From a virus (lineage: Duplodnaviria > Heunggongvirae > Uroviricota > Caudoviricetes): DNA of 9,552 bases. The position numbers and the translations under genes were made by a program. Position 1 is the first letter of the stretch. Each line of letters opens with the position of its first letter. This document shows positions 518-8,666 of this stretch, one piece after another. Location: the IMG/VR virus record IMGVR_UViG_3300014922_000029; one strand, given 5' to 3'. The notes under the pieces were generated by a model. That model searched no databases. It had not been told where the DNA came from and saw only the letters and a list, made by a program, of their open reading frames with translations.

Positions 518-1057
518 TTATCTGTCGATTCCCCAGCACACCAGCGCGCTCTCCTGGTCACGACGGAATACCTGACCGTAGCAGTTATTTGAGCGAATAC
601 GGCAGTCTCTGCCACCGTCCTTAATCCACCAGCGAATCGCCTCACATGCTCCANNNNNNNNNNNNNNNNNNNNNNNNNNNNNNNNNNNNNNNNNNNNNNN
701 NNNNNNNNNNNNNNNNNNNNNNNNNNNNNNNNNNNNNNNNNNNNNNNNNNNNNNNNNNNNNNNNNTCAGCGGCACTCTGATGTTTTTCTCCACCCACGCC
801 AGCGCTTTATCACGCTCAATGGCGTTAACCCGGTCGCATTTTCCCTTCGACAGCTTCATGCCAGGAATAACAGGCTTACCATCCACCCGGGTGGCTCCAC
901 GGCAGATGGTCCAGATCCCCGCACCATCACGGTATGCCATGGTGTGGTTACCTTCTTTTTCGTCAAGAAACTGGTCGAGGATTTCAGGCGCAGACGCCCC
1001 TGCACCAATCAGCGCCAGAACGGCAGCCGACAGGCCGTATCTGATTTTTGCGTTCAT
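518..1057 (-). CDS. R: Phage endolysin, T4-lysozyme-like muramidase with N-terminal SAR (signal-anchor-release) domain; resembles the Qin prophage lysozyme RrrQ/YdfQ
   Basis: 179-aa ORF with ATG at 1057. N-terminus MNAKIRYGLSAAVLALIGAGASAP is a Gly/Ala-rich weakly hydrophobic SAR-type segment, followed by the lysozyme core (EGNHTMAYRDGAGIWTICRGAT). It lies directly after a pinholin. The ORF spans the N run 654-765 in frame, so the central part is unknown. Confidence 0.8.
   Translation of the reverse strand: MNAKIRYGLSAAVLALIGAGASAPEILDQFLDEKEGNHTMAYRDGAGIWTICRGATRVDGKPVIPGMKLSKGKCDRVNAIERDKALAWVEKNIRVPLXXXXXXXXXXXXXXXXXXXXXXXXXXXXXXXXXXXXXXGACEAIRWWIKDGGRDCRIRSNNCYGQVFRRDQESALVCWGIDR
654..765. 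other. Run of 112 N (assembly gap or masked sequence) inside the endolysin gene
   Basis: Literal n characters in the sequence. Confidence 1.
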
Positions 1058-1475: not shown

Positions 1476-1691
1476 TTACTCTCCCCGGGCCGCCTTACGC
1501 CGGTCTTCTTTAATTTTGAAATACAGGTTCGTCAGGTACGTCAGCAGACCAAACAGCAGACTCCCCAGCACGCCTATTGCCGCCCACTGAGACGGGGAAA
1601 CCCTGTCCAGCAACTGCAGGAACCAGTAGCCCGTTCCCACCGCTGACGTGGTGTATGACACACCTGTTGTGATTTTTTCCATCTGGTACAT
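1476..1691 (-). CDS. S: Class II holin (S21-like pinholin) with dual-start motif (Met1 and Met4)
   Basis: 71-aa [74 protein letters not shown] with two TM segments and a charged C-terminus, closely resembling phage 21 S21. GGGAGA Shine-Dalgarno 6-7 nt upstream. The two in-frame starts MYQM fit the antiholin/holin arrangement. Confidence 0.85.
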
Positions 1692-2416: not shown

Positions 2417-4405
2417 TTATGATGATGCCCGGCTTTCGTTAACTTTGACTGTGACCGTATCAAGCAGTACAGGATACGTCGCTTTTGCCCCCGTGATATC
2501 TGTCAGCGTCAGCGTATCTGCTGTAAAGCCATCATTTGTCCACATCACAAGGTCAAACGCCGTCTGCTCTGTACCATCAATCACCGGAACGACTCTTTCG
2601 CTGTTATTTCCCGCAAAGCGGAAAACAACCGTATGCCAGTTATGGTCAAACGCACCAAATGTACCCAGTTGTGCATTCGACGTGCCCTTGTGGTGCATAA
2701 GATTCAGATTTGATGCATCCGTCTGAAGGAAGAATGATGCCAGCATACTGTTTGCTGCCGCGCCTGACGCCCACTGCGACACCGGCCAGTAGAGACCAAA
2801 GACAAACTGTCCGTTCACCAGTTCGCTTCCATCCGGAATTTTGAACCGTACGGCAATTTCACCCCCCTTGCTGAGAAGATTTTTTGCCTCCTCCACTGCA
2901 ACAGTACAGAACATTTTCCAGGACGTCAGTTTACCGGGCTGTTTTTCCAGTCGCAGCGCTTTCCGTCCACCGTCATCAGTCACAGTGCCTTTGCCACCGG
3001 CAGCCCCCCACTGCTGCTCTGTCCATACACCATTTCCACTGTTCGCATCATATTCAGCCACCGTCCTGGTACTGCTCACGGCCTCATCATGACCAGTACC
3101 AGCAACACCGCCATCCTGCGGTTTCTCAACACCCGGTACCCCCGGACTGACATCATCACCGGGAGTTGTACCACCCGACTGCGGTGCGCTCTGCCCGGTA
3201 AGGAACGATAATGTCCGCCCGGCGTACTGCAAAATGGCACCTGCCAGGCGGTCTGAAACAATGCCTCTTCGCGCCCATGAACTGAAGTGCGTTTTACGAT
3301 CGGCTGACGTCCAGTTACTGGCAGTGCGTGACGCAGCGCCATAGTATCCCGCCGGGATAATGTCCGGATCTTCTGACGGCTCGTTTGTCGGCACATTCAC
3401 ACCATGCTCATCCGTCATCAACGGCACAAAGTGAATATTCTGCGCAGCTTTGCCTTTATACCCACCGTAAACCGCCTCATACGGCGCTGCATACCTTTCC
3501 TTCCAGTAGTACGTGGTATCACCGCAAATCCACGGGACGCTGGCCGTTGTCCCGCCAGTACACTGCTCTGCCACATCTGCCAGTTCCGTACGGAACTGAT
3601 TTACCATGGCAAGGAAAAGCGCATTGTGTTCTGCATGTCTCCCCGAACTGACATCTTTTTCTCCCTGCATCCAAATCACTGATAACAGCACGTTCTTCGG
3701 ATTTTTCTTCAGGGCCGCACGGGTTCTGCTGACCAGGTCATAATACAGCGGTTTATCCGCCCCCCACAGGGACGAGCCTGCGGTCGCTCCCGACGCTGCG
3801 TTAAACGCCCCCTCGGCCCCCGCAGTAAATCCCGAATCGCCACGGCCACATGGAACAAGAAGGATACCCGCATTCGCAGGCATAAACGGCAGCAGCTTTT
3901 TGGCAACATGCAGAGCATGCCCCACACAACCGTACTGCCCTTTATTAAGGTCCGCTTCAGGATGATTCAGGTTACTCATATCCTGCACATCATGCAGACA
4001 GTGGTCTGCCGGAATGATGTCGTTATATTTACAGGCGGCACCACCCGGCGTCACCGTACTGCGACGCGCCAGCTGTTTAATACGCGGGTCCGGACGGTCA
4101 TATGTCTCCGGCAGCGGCAGCCCTTCCCCAAAAGACATTGAGTTTGACTGCCCCGCCAGAACAACAACAAAGTAATACTCCGGTTCGCTGGTGGTGCTGA
4201 TAACTGTGCCTTCTCCATCCGACGGCTTCACCACCACAGGTGTGGTGACATCACCTTCCGCCGCAATGGCCTGCATCAGGGTATAAGGCGTGATGGCGAC
4301 AGGGCTGCCAAATGGCTGCCACCCCTCCTTCAGTTTTTGTGTCAGTCGCTCCGCAAGGTCTGACGGCGACGCCGCCCTGACCACATCGTAGTGTTTAAAT
4401 GTCAT
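2417..4405 (-). CDS. nanS-p: Prophage-encoded sialate O-acetylesterase of the NanS-p type (N-terminal DUF1737-like region, SGNH/SASA esterase core, C-terminal probable carbohydrate-binding region)
   Basis: 662-aa ORF. N-terminus MTFKHYDVVRAASPSDLAERLTQKLKEGWQPFG and the esterase motif VVLAGQSNSMSFG match the NanS-p family found between stx and the lysis genes in Stx phages. Size and position between the moron locus and the lysis cassette fit. Confidence 0.85.
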   Translation of the reverse strand: MTFKHYDVVRAASPSDLAERLTQKLKEGWQPFGSPVAITPYTLMQAIAAEGDVTTPVVVKPSDGEGTVISTTSEPEYYFVVVLAGQSNSMSFGEGLPLPETYDRPDPRIKQLARRSTVTPGGAACKYNDIIPADHCLHDVQDMSNLNHPEADLNKGQYGCVGHALHVAKKLLPFMPANAGILLVPCGRGDSGFTAGAEGAFNAASGATAGSSLWGADKPLYYDLVSRTRAALKKNPKNVLLSVIWMQGEKDVSSGRHAEHNALFLAMVNQFRTELADVAEQCTGGTTASVPWICGDTTYYWKERYAAPYEAVYGGYKGKAAQNIHFVPLMTDEHGVNVPTNEPSEDPDIIPAGYYGAASRTASNWTSADRKTHFSSWARRGIVSDRLAGAILQYAGRTLSFLTGQSAPQSGGTTPGDDVSPGVPGVEKPQDGGVAGTGHDEAVSSTRTVAEYDANSGNGVWTEQQWGAAGGKGTVTDDGGRKALRLEKQPGKLTSWKMFCTVAVEEAKNLLSKGGEIAVRFKIPDGSELVNGQFVFGLYWPVSQWASGAAANSMLASFFLQTDASNLNLMHHKGTSNAQLGTFGAFDHNWHTVVFRFAGNNSERVVPVIDGTEQTAFDLVMWTNDGFTADTLTLTDITGAKATYPVLLDTVTVKVNESRASS

Positions 4406-4502
4406 GAATCCTCCCGGTCGGGATAATGTTGTGAGTCAGATGAGGGGCGGGCTGAAGTCCGGAAGTTACAGGACAATGGCAGGAGGAAGACTACAGCCCG
4501 CA

Positions 4503-4533
4503 ATACGAAAAAGGCCGCGCAGTTGCGCAGCCT
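4503..4533 (-). terminator. Intrinsic terminator (minus strand) between the lipoprotein moron and nanS-p
   Basis: Minus-strand RNA aggcugcgc-aacu-gcgcggccu forms a 9-bp stem including one U-G pair, followed by uuuuucguauu. Confidence 0.65.
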
Positions 4534-4586
4534 TATGAATTCTGGTTAAAATCCATTCGATTATAAAAATGTATATCTCATGCTGT

Positions 4587-4616
4587 NNNNNNNNNNNNNN
4601 NNNNNNNNNNNNNNNN
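4587..4616. other. Run of 30 N (gap or masked sequence) in the non-coding stretch
   Basis: Literal n characters in the sequence. Confidence 1.
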
Positions 4617-4885
4617 AGAAAGCCCCTCCGGAGAGGGGCTGGAGAGTGGCGCTATGTGCCATTGCATGGTGCCGGGTGCCTCCCGGTGAGTTCAGCCCGG
4701 TGACACTAAACCCGCATATTCTCGCTTACGATCATCAAAGAGATCATACCGTTCACCAGTCGCCCCTCCGCACAGGGGGATTCACCATGCGAAATTTTTT
4801 TAACAAATGCTCAGTCTGACAGGCAACTGTCAACTTACTGAATTGTGAGGAATTTAACACTTCACAGCACAATATCTTTCCAGCG

Positions 4886-4927
4886 CCCCAAAATCATCAG
4901 GACAGGAGAAAATCTTCTCCCCCTGTC
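4886..4927 (-). terminator. Possible terminator hairpin overlapping the lipoprotein stop codon
   Basis: gacaggagaa (4901-4910) pairs with ttctcc(ccc)tgtc (4915-4927) around loop aatc, with a 3-nt bulge. On the minus strand it is followed by an interrupted T-run (cugaugauuuugg). Weak. Confidence 0.3.
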
Positions 4928-5354
4928 AGAGTTTAAAATCCAGCACGCCATTTCTAAATGCTTTATATACTCCTGAAGACGGTGGTGATGGTATATCAGC
5001 ATTCTTTACTGCATTCATCGCTTCACGACATAAATCGGGATCACCGCTTTCTCTTTTAACCTGTAGCAGAAGACCATTCGGGGCCATATACATTCTCAGT
5101 GAACACTCTTTTCCTGAATACTTACTCGCATCCTTTAACTGTTCTTCTATGGCTTTCCTGACCTGAATGGCATACTGCCTGATTTCTTCACTGGCATCAG
5201 GGGTACGTTCCGATGAGCTCAAATTTTGCGACTTTATTAATTTATCTGAGTGATACAGAGAAGCATCATAATTATTTGTCGATACATCTTTTGTGCAGCC
5301 AGTTGTCAGACTGGCTAATATCAAAACAAGAACTGGTACAGCACGGCAATACAT
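4926..5354 (-). CDS. Lipoprotein with a TolA C-terminal (domain III)-like domain; predicted Lol-sorted outer-membrane lipoprotein
   Basis: 142-aa ORF; ATG at 5354 with GGAG Shine-Dalgarno about 9 nt upstream. Signal peptide MYCRAVPVLVLILASLTTGC with lipobox L-T-T-G-C and no Asp at +2. The C-terminal 85 residues (IRQYAIQVRKAIEEQLKDASKYSGKECSLRMYMAPNGLLLQVKRESGDPDLCREAMNAVKNADIPSPPSSGVYKAFRNGVLDFKL) align along their length with E. coli TolA domain III as I recall it (...YAGQIKSAIESKFYDASSYAGKTCTLRIKLAPDGMLLDIKPEGGDPALCQAALAAAKLAKIPKPPSQAVYEVFKNAPLDFKP). The gene and its upstream region are AT-rich relative to neighbours. Confidence 0.75.
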   Translation of the reverse strand: MYCRAVPVLVLILASLTTGCTKDVSTNNYDASLYHSDKLIKSQNLSSSERTPDASEEIRQYAIQVRKAIEEQLKDASKYSGKECSLRMYMAPNGLLLQVKRESGDPDLCREAMNAVKNADIPSPPSSGVYKAFRNGVLDFKL

Positions 5355-5632
5355 TTATCCATCTCCATATTAACAAGAACAATTATCTATAAAATATAGT
5401 AAATATGCGGGATCCGGGAGGACTTGTAACTATCATCTCCGGATCAGCATGTAGTTTTTATTTTTCCGGATGATATATGCCGCAATAATACCCCTGCATA
5501 CAGATGCCTGCAAATATCTACGAAGCATCCGGCGAGAATAAACAAGGAAGTCTGAGGCTATCTTATATGATAGCCTGTTGCTCAAAAGACAATGATTCAC
5601 TCATCAGAACCAACAACGCATAATGCAGATAA

Positions 5633-5709
5633 TGGACCGCCATCGAGGACTCGAACCCCGCGCAGCCAGCTTCGAAGGCTGGCGCTCTATCCCGATGAGC
5701 TAATGGCGG
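5633..5709 (-). tRNA. tRNA-Arg, anticodon UCG (reads CGA/CGG)
   Basis: Reverse complement folds as a cloverleaf by hand: acceptor ccgccat/atggcgg, D stem gctc/gagc, anticodon stem ccagc/gctgg with loop cuUCGaa, T arm cgggg-ttcgagt-cctcg, discriminator U, encoded CCA. Unusual C1:G72 first pair. Confidence 0.8.
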
Positions 5710-5718
5710 TATGTGATA

Positions 5719-5794
5719 TGGTGGCCCTTGCTGGATTTGAACCAGCGACCTGGCGATTATGAGTCGCTCGCTCTCACCACTGAGCTAAAGGGCC
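5719..5794 (-). tRNA. tRNA-Ile2 type (anticodon CAU, lysidine-modified in vivo; formally could be tRNA-Met)
   Basis: Reverse complement ggccctttagctcagtggtgagagcgagcgactCATaatcgccaggtcgctggttcaaatccagcaagggccacca folds as a canonical cloverleaf and is near-identical in layout to E. coli ileX-type tRNA as I remember it; encoded CCA. Stx-type phages carry an ileZ-arg tRNA cluster at this position. Confidence 0.85.
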
Positions 5795-5834: not shown

Positions 5835-6893
5835 TCATCCGTTCTGACTGACTAAATTCTGAACTTCCCTGACCGTCTGCTCAAAACGCTCAGTCTCCAG
5901 CTCAACGCCAGTTGCACGACGTCCCAGCGCTATCGCTGCTTTGACTGTCGAACCTGACCCCATGAAGAAATCTGCAACCAGGTCACCCGGACGACTGCTC
6001 GCGCTGATTATCTGCTGCAGCATTTCTGCCGGTTTTTCGCACGGATGTTTCCCGGGATAGTACTGCACCGGTTTATGCGTCCACACATCGGTGTACGGCA
6101 CCTGCACCGTCACACCAAAATACCGCCGCAGATGCTTATATTCACTCTGCAGTTCCGTATACTGCCGGTTCAGTTCACTGTATGTGCTGACCAGTTGGTG
6201 ATGTGGCTTTTCCAGTTCTCCGCGCTGATGCTTATCTTCTGCCACCCGGGCAAACAGCGCCTGTAATTTCAGATAATCGCTTTCGTCCGGTAGCTGCCAC
6301 TGGCTGGCACTGAACCAGTGCGACACCATGTTTTTCTTTCCTGTGGCATCAGCAATCTGTTTTGCCGTTATCCCCAGGGCAGCACGCGCATCACGAAAGT
6401 AAGAAATCAGCGGGGCCATCACATGCTGTTTCAGTGCCCTGCCCTTCGCCTCATACCCGGCATCTTTCGGGCGATACGGCCCCTGATAATGTTCCGCGAA
6501 CAGAATGCGCTCTGTGGCGGGGAAATATGCCCTCAGGCTTTCCTTGTTGCACCCGTTCCAGCGTCCGGACGGCTTCGCCCAGATAATATGGTTCAGCACA
6601 TTGAAGCGTTCACGCATCATGATTTCAATGTCAGACGCCAGGCGATGGCCACAGAACAGGTAAAGACTTCCGGCAGGTTTCAGCACCCGCCAGAACTGCG
6701 CAAGACACTGGTCCAGCCACTTCAGGTAATCATCGTCGCCCTTCCACTGGTTATCCCAGCCCTCAGGCTTCACTTTAAAGTACGGCGGGTCCGTGACTAT
6801 CAGGTCAACAGAATTTTCGGGTAACGACCGGATAAATTCCAGGCAGTCGGCGTTGATTAACTCACAACTGGATATTTTTACAGTACTAAGCAT
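5835..6893 (-). CDS. DNA methyltransferase, beta-class amino-methyltransferase (DPPY catalytic motif near the N-terminus, FxGxG SAM-binding motif near the C-terminus); most likely N6-adenine
   Basis: 352-aa ORF with VTDPPYF at residues about 33-39 and DFFMGSGST near residue 310; this motif order defines the beta group. No restriction endonuclease gene nearby, so an orphan methyltransferase. Shine-Dalgarno at the ATG (6893) is weak. Confidence 0.85.
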   Translation of the reverse strand: MLSTVKISSCELINADCLEFIRSLPENSVDLIVTDPPYFKVKPEGWDNQWKGDDDYLKWLDQCLAQFWRVLKPAGSLYLFCGHRLASDIEIMMRERFNVLNHIIWAKPSGRWNGCNKESLRAYFPATERILFAEHYQGPYRPKDAGYEAKGRALKQHVMAPLISYFRDARAALGITAKQIADATGKKNMVSHWFSASQWQLPDESDYLKLQALFARVAEDKHQRGELEKPHHQLVSTYSELNRQYTELQSEYKHLRRYFGVTVQVPYTDVWTHKPVQYYPGKHPCEKPAEMLQQIISASSRPGDLVADFFMGSGSTVKAAIALGRRATGVELETERFEQTVREVQNLVSQNG

Positions 6894-7467: not shown

Positions 7468-8289
7468 CTATCTGGTCACCTTTTTCAGTTGTTGTTCTGC
7501 CCATGCTTCTTCAATATCAAACTGCACCACCAGCGTATCGTAAAAACGTTTAACTGTTTTTTTCCATGTATCAAGAGATATGGCATCGGTTACATTACAT
7601 ATGGCATTAAATGCCTCCGTTGAAGGTAATCTTTCATAGCCACGCCCACCACAACGCTGACAGTTTCTGAAAACCGGCACACCCTGTTTTTCCGACTCTT
7701 CACGATGAATGGCAACACCGCGCCCACGACAATCTTTACAGGCAGTGGATACCTCTCCCTTCCCTCCACACTCCGGACAGGCAACTTTTACCACCTCCCT
7801 GACTTTTTTCCATTCCTCCCAGTAAGACGGATACACGCCTTTTGTGCACTTTGCCCACACTGGCGGCTTACCATCCGGATACTGGATCTTGTTTGTAAAA
7901 ACCTCGCTTTCAATAAATTTTTTTCCGTGACAGCAGGGGCACTGTTTTTTGCTCGCCGCGCTACGGGCATAATCTTCAAACGCATACGAAGCCATAATAC
8001 GCATCACTGCCGGTTTTATTTCTGCCGGGAGTTTTCTTAACGCCGCCACGCGATCACACCGACTGAGTGCATATTCTGTCAGCAATTCTGTTGCCCGCTC
8101 TCTGTCATTCATACTAATGCCCATTTTCCCAAGGAACGCAGAAAACCCCATCTCAGCCCGATTCTGTGTCATGCCCTGCGCGGCCATCACATCAGTGATA
8201 CTCAGCGCATCTTTCGACGTTGAGGCCGATGCATCAGTCAGGCCGGGGGATTTTGGGGAGTAGTATTTCGGTAAATCTTCCAGTTTCAT
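7468..8289 (-). CDS. Q: Late-gene antitermination protein Q (larger Q type with several CxxC zinc-binding motifs, QuuQ-like)
   Basis: 273-aa ORF. N-terminal MKLEDLPKYYSPKSP...ITDVMAAQGM resembles prophage Q antiterminators as I recall them. CxxC pairs CPCCHG, CPECGG, CKDCRG, CQRCGG. Sits immediately upstream of the pR'/qut-like promoter and tR'. Start overlaps the rusA stop (ATGA). Confidence 0.8.
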   Translation of the reverse strand: MKLEDLPKYYSPKSPGLTDASASTSKDALSITDVMAAQGMTQNRAEMGFSAFLGKMGISMNDRERATELLTEYALSRCDRVAALRKLPAEIKPAVMRIMASYAFEDYARSAASKKQCPCCHGKKFIESEVFTNKIQYPDGKPPVWAKCTKGVYPSYWEEWKKVREVVKVACPECGGKGEVSTACKDCRGRGVAIHREESEKQGVPVFRNCQRCGGRGYERLPSTEAFNAICNVTDAISLDTWKKTVKRFYDTLVVQFDIEEAWAEQQLKKVTR

Positions 8290-8666
8290 TTTTTGACCTG
8301 CCCTTCAAGCATTATGGGGTAAATCTTCACCCCCAGACGTCCACCAGATACTGGCTGGCCACGTACAATATTGATTTCATCAAACTGCTCATCGTCCATT
8401 AACAACCCCGCGTGCGTCAGCGCATCCAGCGGTGCTTTCAGAATATTGTCCAGGTCACGACGACGCTTATCCGGTGGCTCTGCAATAATCCTGATTACCA
8501 GCCTTCCGGACAGGCTTAATTTCAGCCGCTGCTGGCGAACAATAAGCGCCACAGCCCGGCGATAACGCTTTCCCTCCTCCGAGATAAAATATGTGCTGCC
8601 ACGGCGTCGCCAGTAAGTGTTCACCGTCGGCGGGTAAGGCAAAACAAATTCTATGCGTTCGGTCAT
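8286..8666 (-). CDS. rusA: RusA-family Holliday junction resolvase
   Basis: 126-aa ORF; the motif PPDKRRRDLDNILKAPLDALTHAGLLMDDEQ matches RusA (E. coli RusA has [23 protein letters not shown]). Sits in the ninG/rusA-to-Q position typical of lambdoid phages. Confidence 0.9.
   Translation of the reverse strand: MTERIEFVLPYPPTVNTYWRRRGSTYFISEEGKRYRRAVALIVRQQRLKLSLSGRLVIRIIAEPPDKRRRDLDNILKAPLDALTHAGLLMDDEQFDEINIVRGQPVSGGRLGVKIYPIMLEGQVKK

Follow-up and report, generated by a model that had tools for sequence, protein, structure and literature searches.

Group A colicins and filamentous phages all pass through domain III of the host protein TolA (TolAIII). The protection known against these invaders consists of cognate immunity proteins, loss of the receptor, and lipoproteins that block the receptor. 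Several small outer-membrane lipoproteins shield the carrier cell from incoming phages or DNA: Cor of phages phi80, N15 and mEp167 and Llp of phage T5, both acting on FhuA, and TraT of the F plasmid. Cells infected by Ff phages become immune as the N1 domain of g3p occupies TolAIII. In a laboratory construct of 1993, Levengood-Freyermuth, Click and Webster (J Bacteriol 175:222) reportedly found that an excess of free periplasmic TolAIII made cells tolerant of colicins E1, E2, E3 and A while leaving them sensitive to colicin D, which depends on TonB; the free domain is also said to have caused deoxycholate sensitivity and periplasmic leakage, and to have failed to complement a tolA null. Here we analyze a gene in a 9,552-nucleotide stretch of lambdoid prophage DNA (IMG/VR virus record IMGVR_UViG_3300014922_000029; the whole stretch is called the window below), whose 142-amino-acid product joins a lipoprotein signal peptide to a TolAIII-like domain. 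Our favored, though tentative, reading is that this lipoprotein acts as a dead-end decoy, giving tolerance to group A colicins and Ff-type phages.

The prophage protein shares part of its design with each of these systems. Like the construct of Levengood-Freyermuth and colleagues, it is a TolAIII uncoupled from the rest of TolA, and the effects reportedly seen with the construct are the phenotypes that we predict here. The construct, however, is said to have been artificial, soluble and overproduced, whereas the prophage protein is natural, predicted to be lipid-anchored, and under purifying selection. Cor, Llp and TraT, which may be likened to it by their design, are likewise outer-membrane lipoproteins of mobile elements, with what would be the same compartment and the same logic of exclusion. 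Unlike it, they do not copy a host protein, and their targets are outer-membrane receptors, which they bind and inactivate; the prophage protein would instead compete with the periplasmic energy transducer for the invader. The immunity mediated by g3p targets the same interface, at which beta3 of TolAIII meets g3p N1 and colicins (interaction data in PMC4339652), but is the mirror image of the present case: there a ligand made by the phage saturates host TolA, and here it is the receptor domain of which the phage makes a copy.

The open reading frame (ORF) lies on the minus strand, from an ATG start to a TGA stop at 4926-4928, and encodes three parts: a lipoprotein signal peptide, a disordered linker of about 33 residues, and an 88-residue domain. 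An identical locus in Escherichia coli G1/2 carries the gene for RefSeq protein WP_000271631.1. The original prediction that the C-terminal region is TolA domain III was confirmed by profile search and by structural modeling. The Pfam family PF06519 (TolA_C) matches residues 52-140 with E=5.7e-23 (81.4 bits against a cut-off of 25; model positions 7-96 of 96), and the E. coli TolAIII chains in the PDB (1s62, 3qdp, 2x9a and 1tol) align with residues 54-141 without a gap at E values of about 1e-25. These residues pair with positions 333-420 of E. coli TolA (n here corresponding to n+279) and are 52% identical over the 88 residues. In an AlphaFold2 (AF2) model built on an alignment of 11 family members, residues 54-142 reach a predicted local distance difference test score (pLDDT) of 70-89, and residues 13-52 stay under 50. 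Its order of elements, helix-helix-strand-strand-helix-helix-strand, is that of E. coli TolAIII (residues ~333-421; PDB 1S62, 3QDP, 1TOL, 3QDR), and the five best Foldseek matches are all E. coli TolAIII (probability 1.0; TM(target) 0.75-0.80; root-mean-square deviation 2.0-2.8 Å for crystal structures).

Outside this domain the two proteins part ways. TolA is anchored in the inner membrane and encoded in the tol-pal operon, whereas the prophage-borne protein would be fixed to the outer membrane through a lipid at its N terminus. Of the other TolA domains it has neither domain I (the inner-membrane anchor, coupled to TolQR) nor the long Ala/Lys/Glu-rich helical domain II, and its gene lies outside any tolQ-tolR-tolA-tolB-pal operon. 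The NCBIfam TolA equivalogs match only through their last ~90 positions: NF007065 scores 103 against a cut-off of 213, and TIGR02794 scores 75.9 against a cut-off of 59.45, but only over model positions 266-361 of 362. Given that domain III is present without I or II, the RefSeq name 'tolA, cell envelope integrity protein TolA' is a misnomer, and the hundreds of RefSeq genomes in which the gene is called 'tolA' hold a systematic misannotation to be corrected. PHROGs places the protein in family 5772, labelled unknown function.

The N terminus reads MYCRAVPVLVLILASLTTGC and then TKD, with one basic residue, a 12-residue hydrophobic core, and the lipobox L-T-T-G-C followed by Thr at +2; the lipobox and signal peptide were assigned by direct reading of this pattern. 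Across 11 family members Cys20 and Thr21 do not vary, although the signal peptides diverge. Such a lipobox with an invariant Cys, and a +2 position free of the Lol-avoidance Asp, are the marks of a bacterial outer-membrane lipoprotein, and from them we infer that the protein is anchored by its lipid to the inner face of the outer membrane. The outer-membrane sorting signal proposed at the outset is thus present, and is conserved across alleles.

The domain retains the features of TolAIII on which known partners depend. Its disulfide pair C84/C109, invariant in the family, corresponds to C363/C388 of TolA, and its beta3 strand, L138-D139-F140-K141, corresponds to L417-D418-F419-K420 of TolA and is identical in all E. 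coli alleles. In TolA, this strand is used by the TolB N-terminus, colicin N and g3p N1 through strand addition, and the substitutions D418P and K420P abolish the binding of TolB, colicin N and g3p-N1 and produce a full tol phenotype (PMC4339652). Pal, which the original prediction had also named as a direct partner of TolAIII, is not supported as such by recent work (review PMC7391070).

The window covers the late genes of a lambdoid prophage, which run along the minus strand in the order Q, methyltransferase, tRNA-Ile2(CAT), tRNA-Arg(TCG), TolAIII-like ORF, nanS-p, two small genes for domains of unknown function (DUF), holin and lysozyme; the same stretch, identical, is annotated in E. coli G1/2 and in more than 100 other complete genomes. 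In the Shiga toxin (Stx) phage 933W the order is Q, ileZ, argN, argO, stxA2, stxB2, L0105 (nanS-p), S, R. Megablast matches to Stx phages break off at ~5612 and restart at ~4881, and a cassette of ~730 bp therefore occupies the position of argO and stxAB. Over 4950-5550 the GC content is 37-42%, versus ~52% in the flanks. The gene had been described as part of an AT-rich moron at the stx-equivalent locus, between the tRNA genes and nanS-p, and both its placement and its composition bear this out: the cassette is inserted relative to related phages and deviates from its flanks in base composition. The slot is identical to that of stxAB in Stx-converting phages, in the Q-dependent late operon, but product and function are unrelated, and the cassette here additionally displaces a tRNA gene. 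Only two tRNA genes are found in the window; the third of the Stx phages, argO (AGA/AGG), was lost at the boundary of the cassette, together with stxAB.

By blastn, the ORF has matches in 897 of 5426 complete E. coli genomes; the copy is near-identical in 122 of these and stands at 80-90% DNA identity in 764, which make up the commonest allele class. Three allele types can be told apart by their signal peptides (MYCRAV..., MYCRGL... and MGFRSA...), all of which keep Cys20 and Thr21. Within the loci that were retrieved there are 85 matches, and all 84 close copies are intact 142-codon ORFs. Between allele types, the ratio of nonsynonymous to synonymous substitutions (dN/dS, Nei-Gojobori) is 0.23-0.29 in the domain, at a dS of ~0.45, and 0.36-0.87 in the linker, which is relaxed by comparison. 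The gene is thus under purifying selection and maintained. Frameshifted variants do occur, and RefSeq marks some copies as partial or as pseudogenes.

The type C copy that we examined, a member of this commonest class at one locus in E. coli Combat13F7, is intact and lies in a Rac-like prophage with trkG, ynaK and pinR nearby; this single locus suggests a benefit to the host rather than a part in the lytic program. RefSeq annotates it as a partial pseudogene (8115-8375), yet a full 142-codon ORF with signal peptide and Shine-Dalgarno is present (L003:7948-8376). Directly downstream is a second, more divergent TolA_C lipoprotein paralogue (L003:8526-8921, plus strand) with a VAGC lipobox and a C-terminal strand GFDMR in place of LDFK, so that the two form a tandem pair upstream of the holin. 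Phage mEp460_ev081 carries the same pair, the paralogue (L001:4359-4754, minus strand) being assigned from its position, its size and two tblastn placements.

Run exhaustively against 1.84 billion cluster representatives, phmmer yielded 303 matches. Among the best 150 of these, 77 are 100-210 amino acids long. A lipobox opens 50 of the 77, and a few others carry a signal peptide of the ordinary kind. The family reaches across Enterobacterales, with named members in Serratia, Klebsiella, Kosakonia, Citrobacter and Gibbsiella, all of which are called 'TolA' by their sources. A diverged set of 46 lipoproteins, 27-72% identical to the window protein, keeps the design: none has Asp at +2, and the tether measures 7-40 residues (median 25). 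Along the beta3 motif L-D-F-K/R the expected residue is found in 32, 34, 43 and 37 of the 46, respectively, making this the best-kept surface strand, while the beta2 edge is variable.

Relatives occupy unrelated positions. One, in a P2-like viral contig, lies beside tail-fibre genes and an O-acetyltransferase, and another, a fusion of TonB_C and TolA_C, belongs to the nin region of a Citrobacter freundii lambdoid prophage; this scatter over phage genomes argues for an autonomous conversion gene. Single-protein scans of viral contigs with two family representatives (P0104 and P0049) gave no match. Isolated chromosomal relatives are found in Serratia fonticola, Gibbsiella, an Enterobacteriaceae strain and Kosakonia. 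Around those of Serratia fonticola, Gibbsiella quercinecans and the Enterobacteriaceae isolate (L086/L087:7001-7411, L089:7001-7405 and L090:7001-7420) there are 0 phage genes within 7 kb; the Serratia fonticola gene comes after a fimbrial usher operon, and among these chromosomal orphans a lipobox was confirmed for the Gibbsiella protein only. A Tatumella 'short TolA' that had looked like a further orphan was rejected, as it is a frameshifted true tolA in its own operon.

The same prophage in E. coli G1/2 encodes, outside the window (L002:5242-5568, minus strand), a 108-residue lipoprotein beginning MKRNLPLIILLSSLVMGC and carrying a TonB C-terminal domain (PF03544, E=1e-14). The design recurs here: after a lipoprotein signal (LVMGC) comes an energy transducer's C-terminal domain. 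The two proteins differ in which domain this is and in location, the TonB_C gene being placed downstream of the lysis genes. This TonB_C lipoprotein also occurs in phage 21, in Stx1a phages and in JLK-2012 (15 phage records). The PHROGs label 'Rz-like spanin' for its family is probably a misannotation, and no study of the protein was found in the literature with open-access coverage. The protein, WP_000828068.1, was also seen downstream of lysis genes at L004:14589-14915. Two family representatives, P0104 of C. freundii and P0147, are single lipoproteins in which TonB_C is followed by TolA_C. The former (WP_213354707.1, L093:8001-8630) has 209 residues and is encoded between the replication genes O/P and NinG/Q. 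That tethered TonB and TolA tips occur side by side and also fused points to a common purpose, aimed at the two import routes used by colicins and several phages.

The decoy would work as follows. A periplasmic TolAIII head would be lipid-anchored under the outer membrane through a flexible tether of ~33 residues. Lacking both the membrane anchor and the periplasm-spanning helix of TolA, it could not couple to TolQR or the proton-motive force, and so could not energize import. Its exposed beta3 edge (LDFK) would remain available for strand addition to the TolB N-terminus, colicin N and g3p N1, and, from its place just under the outer membrane, the decoy would be reached by colicin translocation domains and g3p earlier than TolA, whose anchor is in the inner membrane. 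A dead-end complex would then hold the invaders, as well as TolB N-termini activated by E-type colicins. This would make the lysogen tolerant of the Tol-dependent colicins (group A) and of Ff-type phages, possibly at the cost of some weakening of Tol-Pal. Given that TolA binds TolB at ~40 μM and colicin N at 1 μM (PMC4339652), decoy at a moderate dose could hold invaders and yet leave Tol-Pal working.

No characterized prophage protein of the TolA-like or TonB-like lipoprotein type was found in the literature with open-access coverage, and PADLOC-DB 2.0 gave no defense-model match at E<=0.01; together with the absence of a functional label in PHROGs, this agrees with the earlier view that no protein of this design has been characterized. 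The domain family and the gene itself are already known and annotated, if wrongly named; what appears undescribed is a mobile, lipid-tethered mimic of a host import hub, with the function that this implies. If the reading is correct, roughly one in six sequenced E. coli would carry, in this case in the Shiga-toxin slot, a generic tolerance device that mimics the host import hub, and this would indicate how far Tol-Pal can be titrated without cell death. A broader claim would be that the prophages and chromosomes of Enterobacterales deploy outer-membrane-tethered copies of TolA and TonB C-terminal domains, single, tandem or fused, as broad-spectrum decoys against bacteriocins and phages that parasitize Tol and Ton; such decoys would form an undescribed class of envelope-level defense, based on mimicry of the host's import machinery. 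We regard this broader claim as possible but doubtful; should the same logic hold for the TonB-domain lipoprotein and the fusions, they would amount to a new layer of bacteriocin and phage defense.

Signals for expression were sought around the gene. A Shine-Dalgarno sequence, as originally predicted, is found 8 nucleotides before the ATG, and similar motifs precede the type B and type C alleles (one locus each). The promoter of its own that the moron description had included was not supported for the window allele: a consensus scan of the window gave 2 matches versus 3.0 expected, the best of them 9/12. The AT-rich stretch conserved just upstream of types A and B is without a good -35 element. 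In the type C copy of Combat13F7, a 10/12 sigma-70-like match (TTGAGC-18-TATAAT) ends 30 nucleotides before the ATG, though such matches are not above chance. The hairpin noted at the stop codon does exist, as a 10-bp stem with two G-U pairs, but it is not supported as a terminator: it has no adjacent U-tract, its fold is not remarkable against shuffled sequence (z=-0.94), and the terminator scan did not pick it up. The first canonical terminator-like hairpin is ~390 nucleotides farther downstream, past an STnc100-like element. We looked for transcriptome evidence of expression of the gene and found none; one lead, 'EDL933_2012 (TolA type)', 32-fold up with ciprofloxacin (PMC11125564), proved irrelevant, since the supplement shows a tail-fibre gene.

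Several observations weigh against a decoy. Colicin A binds TolA at beta2 (L375-P380) and at K368, K379 and K396 (PMC3365938). The beta2 residues here are L96, L97, Q98, V99, K100 and R101, and the contacts are partly kept: K379 and K396 are retained, while K368 is replaced by Y or H, D377 by Q or E, and P380 by R. With beta3 identical and the colicin A residues partly changed, the edge for TolB, colicin N and g3p is preserved and that for colicin A less so. In place of the TolA tyrosine implicated in binding TolB (Y353 here; Y352 in the numbering of Walburger), the prophage protein has K, R or G. As regards expression in the lysogen, the chance-level promoter scan counts against the decoy, and because the gene lies in a Q-dependent late operon it may be produced only after induction. 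Just 1 of 50,697 sequenced phage records has the gene (mEp460_ev081); in IMG/VR, 145 viral contigs have it. Several distant relatives are chromosomal orphans without phage context, so the family may serve a purpose that is not tied to phages. Selection could also have favored a dominant-negative action on Tol-Pal for its own sake, an action that the decoy reading treats as a side effect, and no experiment on the lipoprotein was found in the literature.

One alternative is an accessory role in lysis or egress, in which a tethered TolAIII made late would titrate TolB N-termini and turn Tol-Pal off, weakening the outer membrane for faster lysis, blebbing, and release of phage or periplasmic cargo. 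The gene is indeed on the late-operon strand between Q and the holin, the consensus scan gave it no convincing promoter, beta3, the strand that binds TolB, is retained, and proline mutants of TolA beta3 show the full tol phenotype (PMC4339652). Free periplasmic TolAIII, too, reportedly makes cells leaky. Against this role stand an intact copy in a prophage with Rac markers and a 10/12 promoter match (of a kind not above chance) 30 nucleotides upstream, and relatives in the early nin region, beside tail-fibre genes or orphaned in chromosomes; pairing and fusion with TonB_C would make no sense for it, and the affinity of TolA for TolB is weak (~40 μM; PMC4339652). We consider it unlikely. The decoy is circumstantially strengthened over a lysis accessory by purifying selection, the invariant beta3, the Rac-like copy, the unrelated phage positions and the TonB_C-TolA_C fusions. 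Low expression in the lysogen might instead tune Tol-Pal, altering vesiculation, bile or detergent tolerance or surface properties to a benefit unrelated to colicins and phages. The spread of the gene through commensal and pathogenic E. coli (897/5426 genomes), the chromosomal orphans in Serratia, Gibbsiella and Kosakonia, and the hypervesiculation that follows Tol-Pal defects (review PMC7391070) would suit such an envelope or virulence modulator, but nothing specific supports it, weakening Tol-Pal is normally costly, and the TonB_C partner and fusions are left unexplained, making it improbable.

The slot is a known hot spot of gene exchange, some copies are flagged by RefSeq as partial or as pseudogenes, and frameshifted variants occur, all of which would fit a functionless fragment of host tolA, captured and hitch-hiking in the hypervariable stx-equivalent position. 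Against such a fragment stand the dedicated lipoprotein signal peptide and tether that have been added, the invariant disulfide pair and beta3, and an architecture shared across a broad family, and the selection data (domain dN/dS of 0.23-0.29 at dS ~0.45, with 84/84 close copies intact) largely refute it; we judge it very improbable. That the protein is a true TolA paralogue working as TolA, as its PGAP name and the above-cut-off TIGR02794 score (75.9 > 59.45) would imply, is scarcely credible for a product of 142 residues in which a cleaved lipoprotein signal replaces domain II and the transmembrane helix that couples to TolQR, which matches the TolA models over their last ~90 residues only (NF007065, 103 vs 213), and whose gene is not within the tolQRAB-pal operon; free TolAIII, moreover, reportedly fails to complement a tolA null.

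Features of the window, with positions in the whole stretch. Abbreviations: CDS, coding sequence; sRNA, small RNA.
Feature	Position	Strand	Basis or remark
Antiterminator Q	7468-8289	-	
DNA methyltransferase	5835-6893	-	
tRNA-Ile2/Met(CAT), ileZ equivalent	5719-5794	-	ARAGORN, Rfam, RefSeq annotation
tRNA-Arg(TCG), argN equivalent	5633-5709	-	ARAGORN, Rfam, RefSeq annotation
AT-rich cassette without counterpart in Stx phages, in place of argO and stxAB	4882-5611	-	megablast match limits (query 813 of 4800-5700; query 582 of 4300-5000), GC, 933W order
Perfect 8-bp inverted repeat AGGCTATC-ATATAA-GATAGCCT	5555-5576	-	upstream end of cassette
Shine-Dalgarno GGAG	5363-5366	-	read from sequence; 8 nucleotides upstream of ATG
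142-residue TolAIII-like lipoprotein CDS	4926-5354	-	ORF list; Pfam, NCBIfam, PHROG and PDB matches
Lipoprotein signal peptide (residues 1-19) and lipidated Cys20 (predicted)	5295-5354	-	direct reading; lipobox LTTGC, Thr21 at +2
Flexible tether (residues 21-53)	5196-5294	-	AF2 pLDDT <50; relaxed dN/dS; no TolA homology
TolA domain III-like globular domain (residues 54-142)	4929-5195	-	Pfam, PDB, AF2, Foldseek, dN/dS
Imperfect hairpin from the stop codon (GACAGGGGGA / UUCUCCUGUC)	4901-4927	-	not a canonical terminator
STnc100-family sRNA-like element	4610-4819	-	Rfam RF02076, full-length model; 167.7 bits vs gathering score 47, E=1.8e-39
Intrinsic-terminator-like hairpin with T-run, between cassette and nanS-p	4511-4534	-	terminator scan: 10 pairs, 7 GC
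nanS-p esterase	2417-4405	-	
Holin	1476-1691	-	
Lysozyme	518-1057	-	

Two runs of N are masked in the window, at 4587-4616 (intergenic) and at about 650-770 (within the lysozyme ORF), and features there are unreadable. The 3' end of the STnc100-like element adjoins the former. This element, located between the TolAIII-like gene and nanS-p, is common to Stx phages, in which its position would be just downstream of stxB. The inverted repeat at the upstream end of the cassette lies ~60 nucleotides after tRNA-Arg and was not picked up by the terminator scan because it has no T-run.

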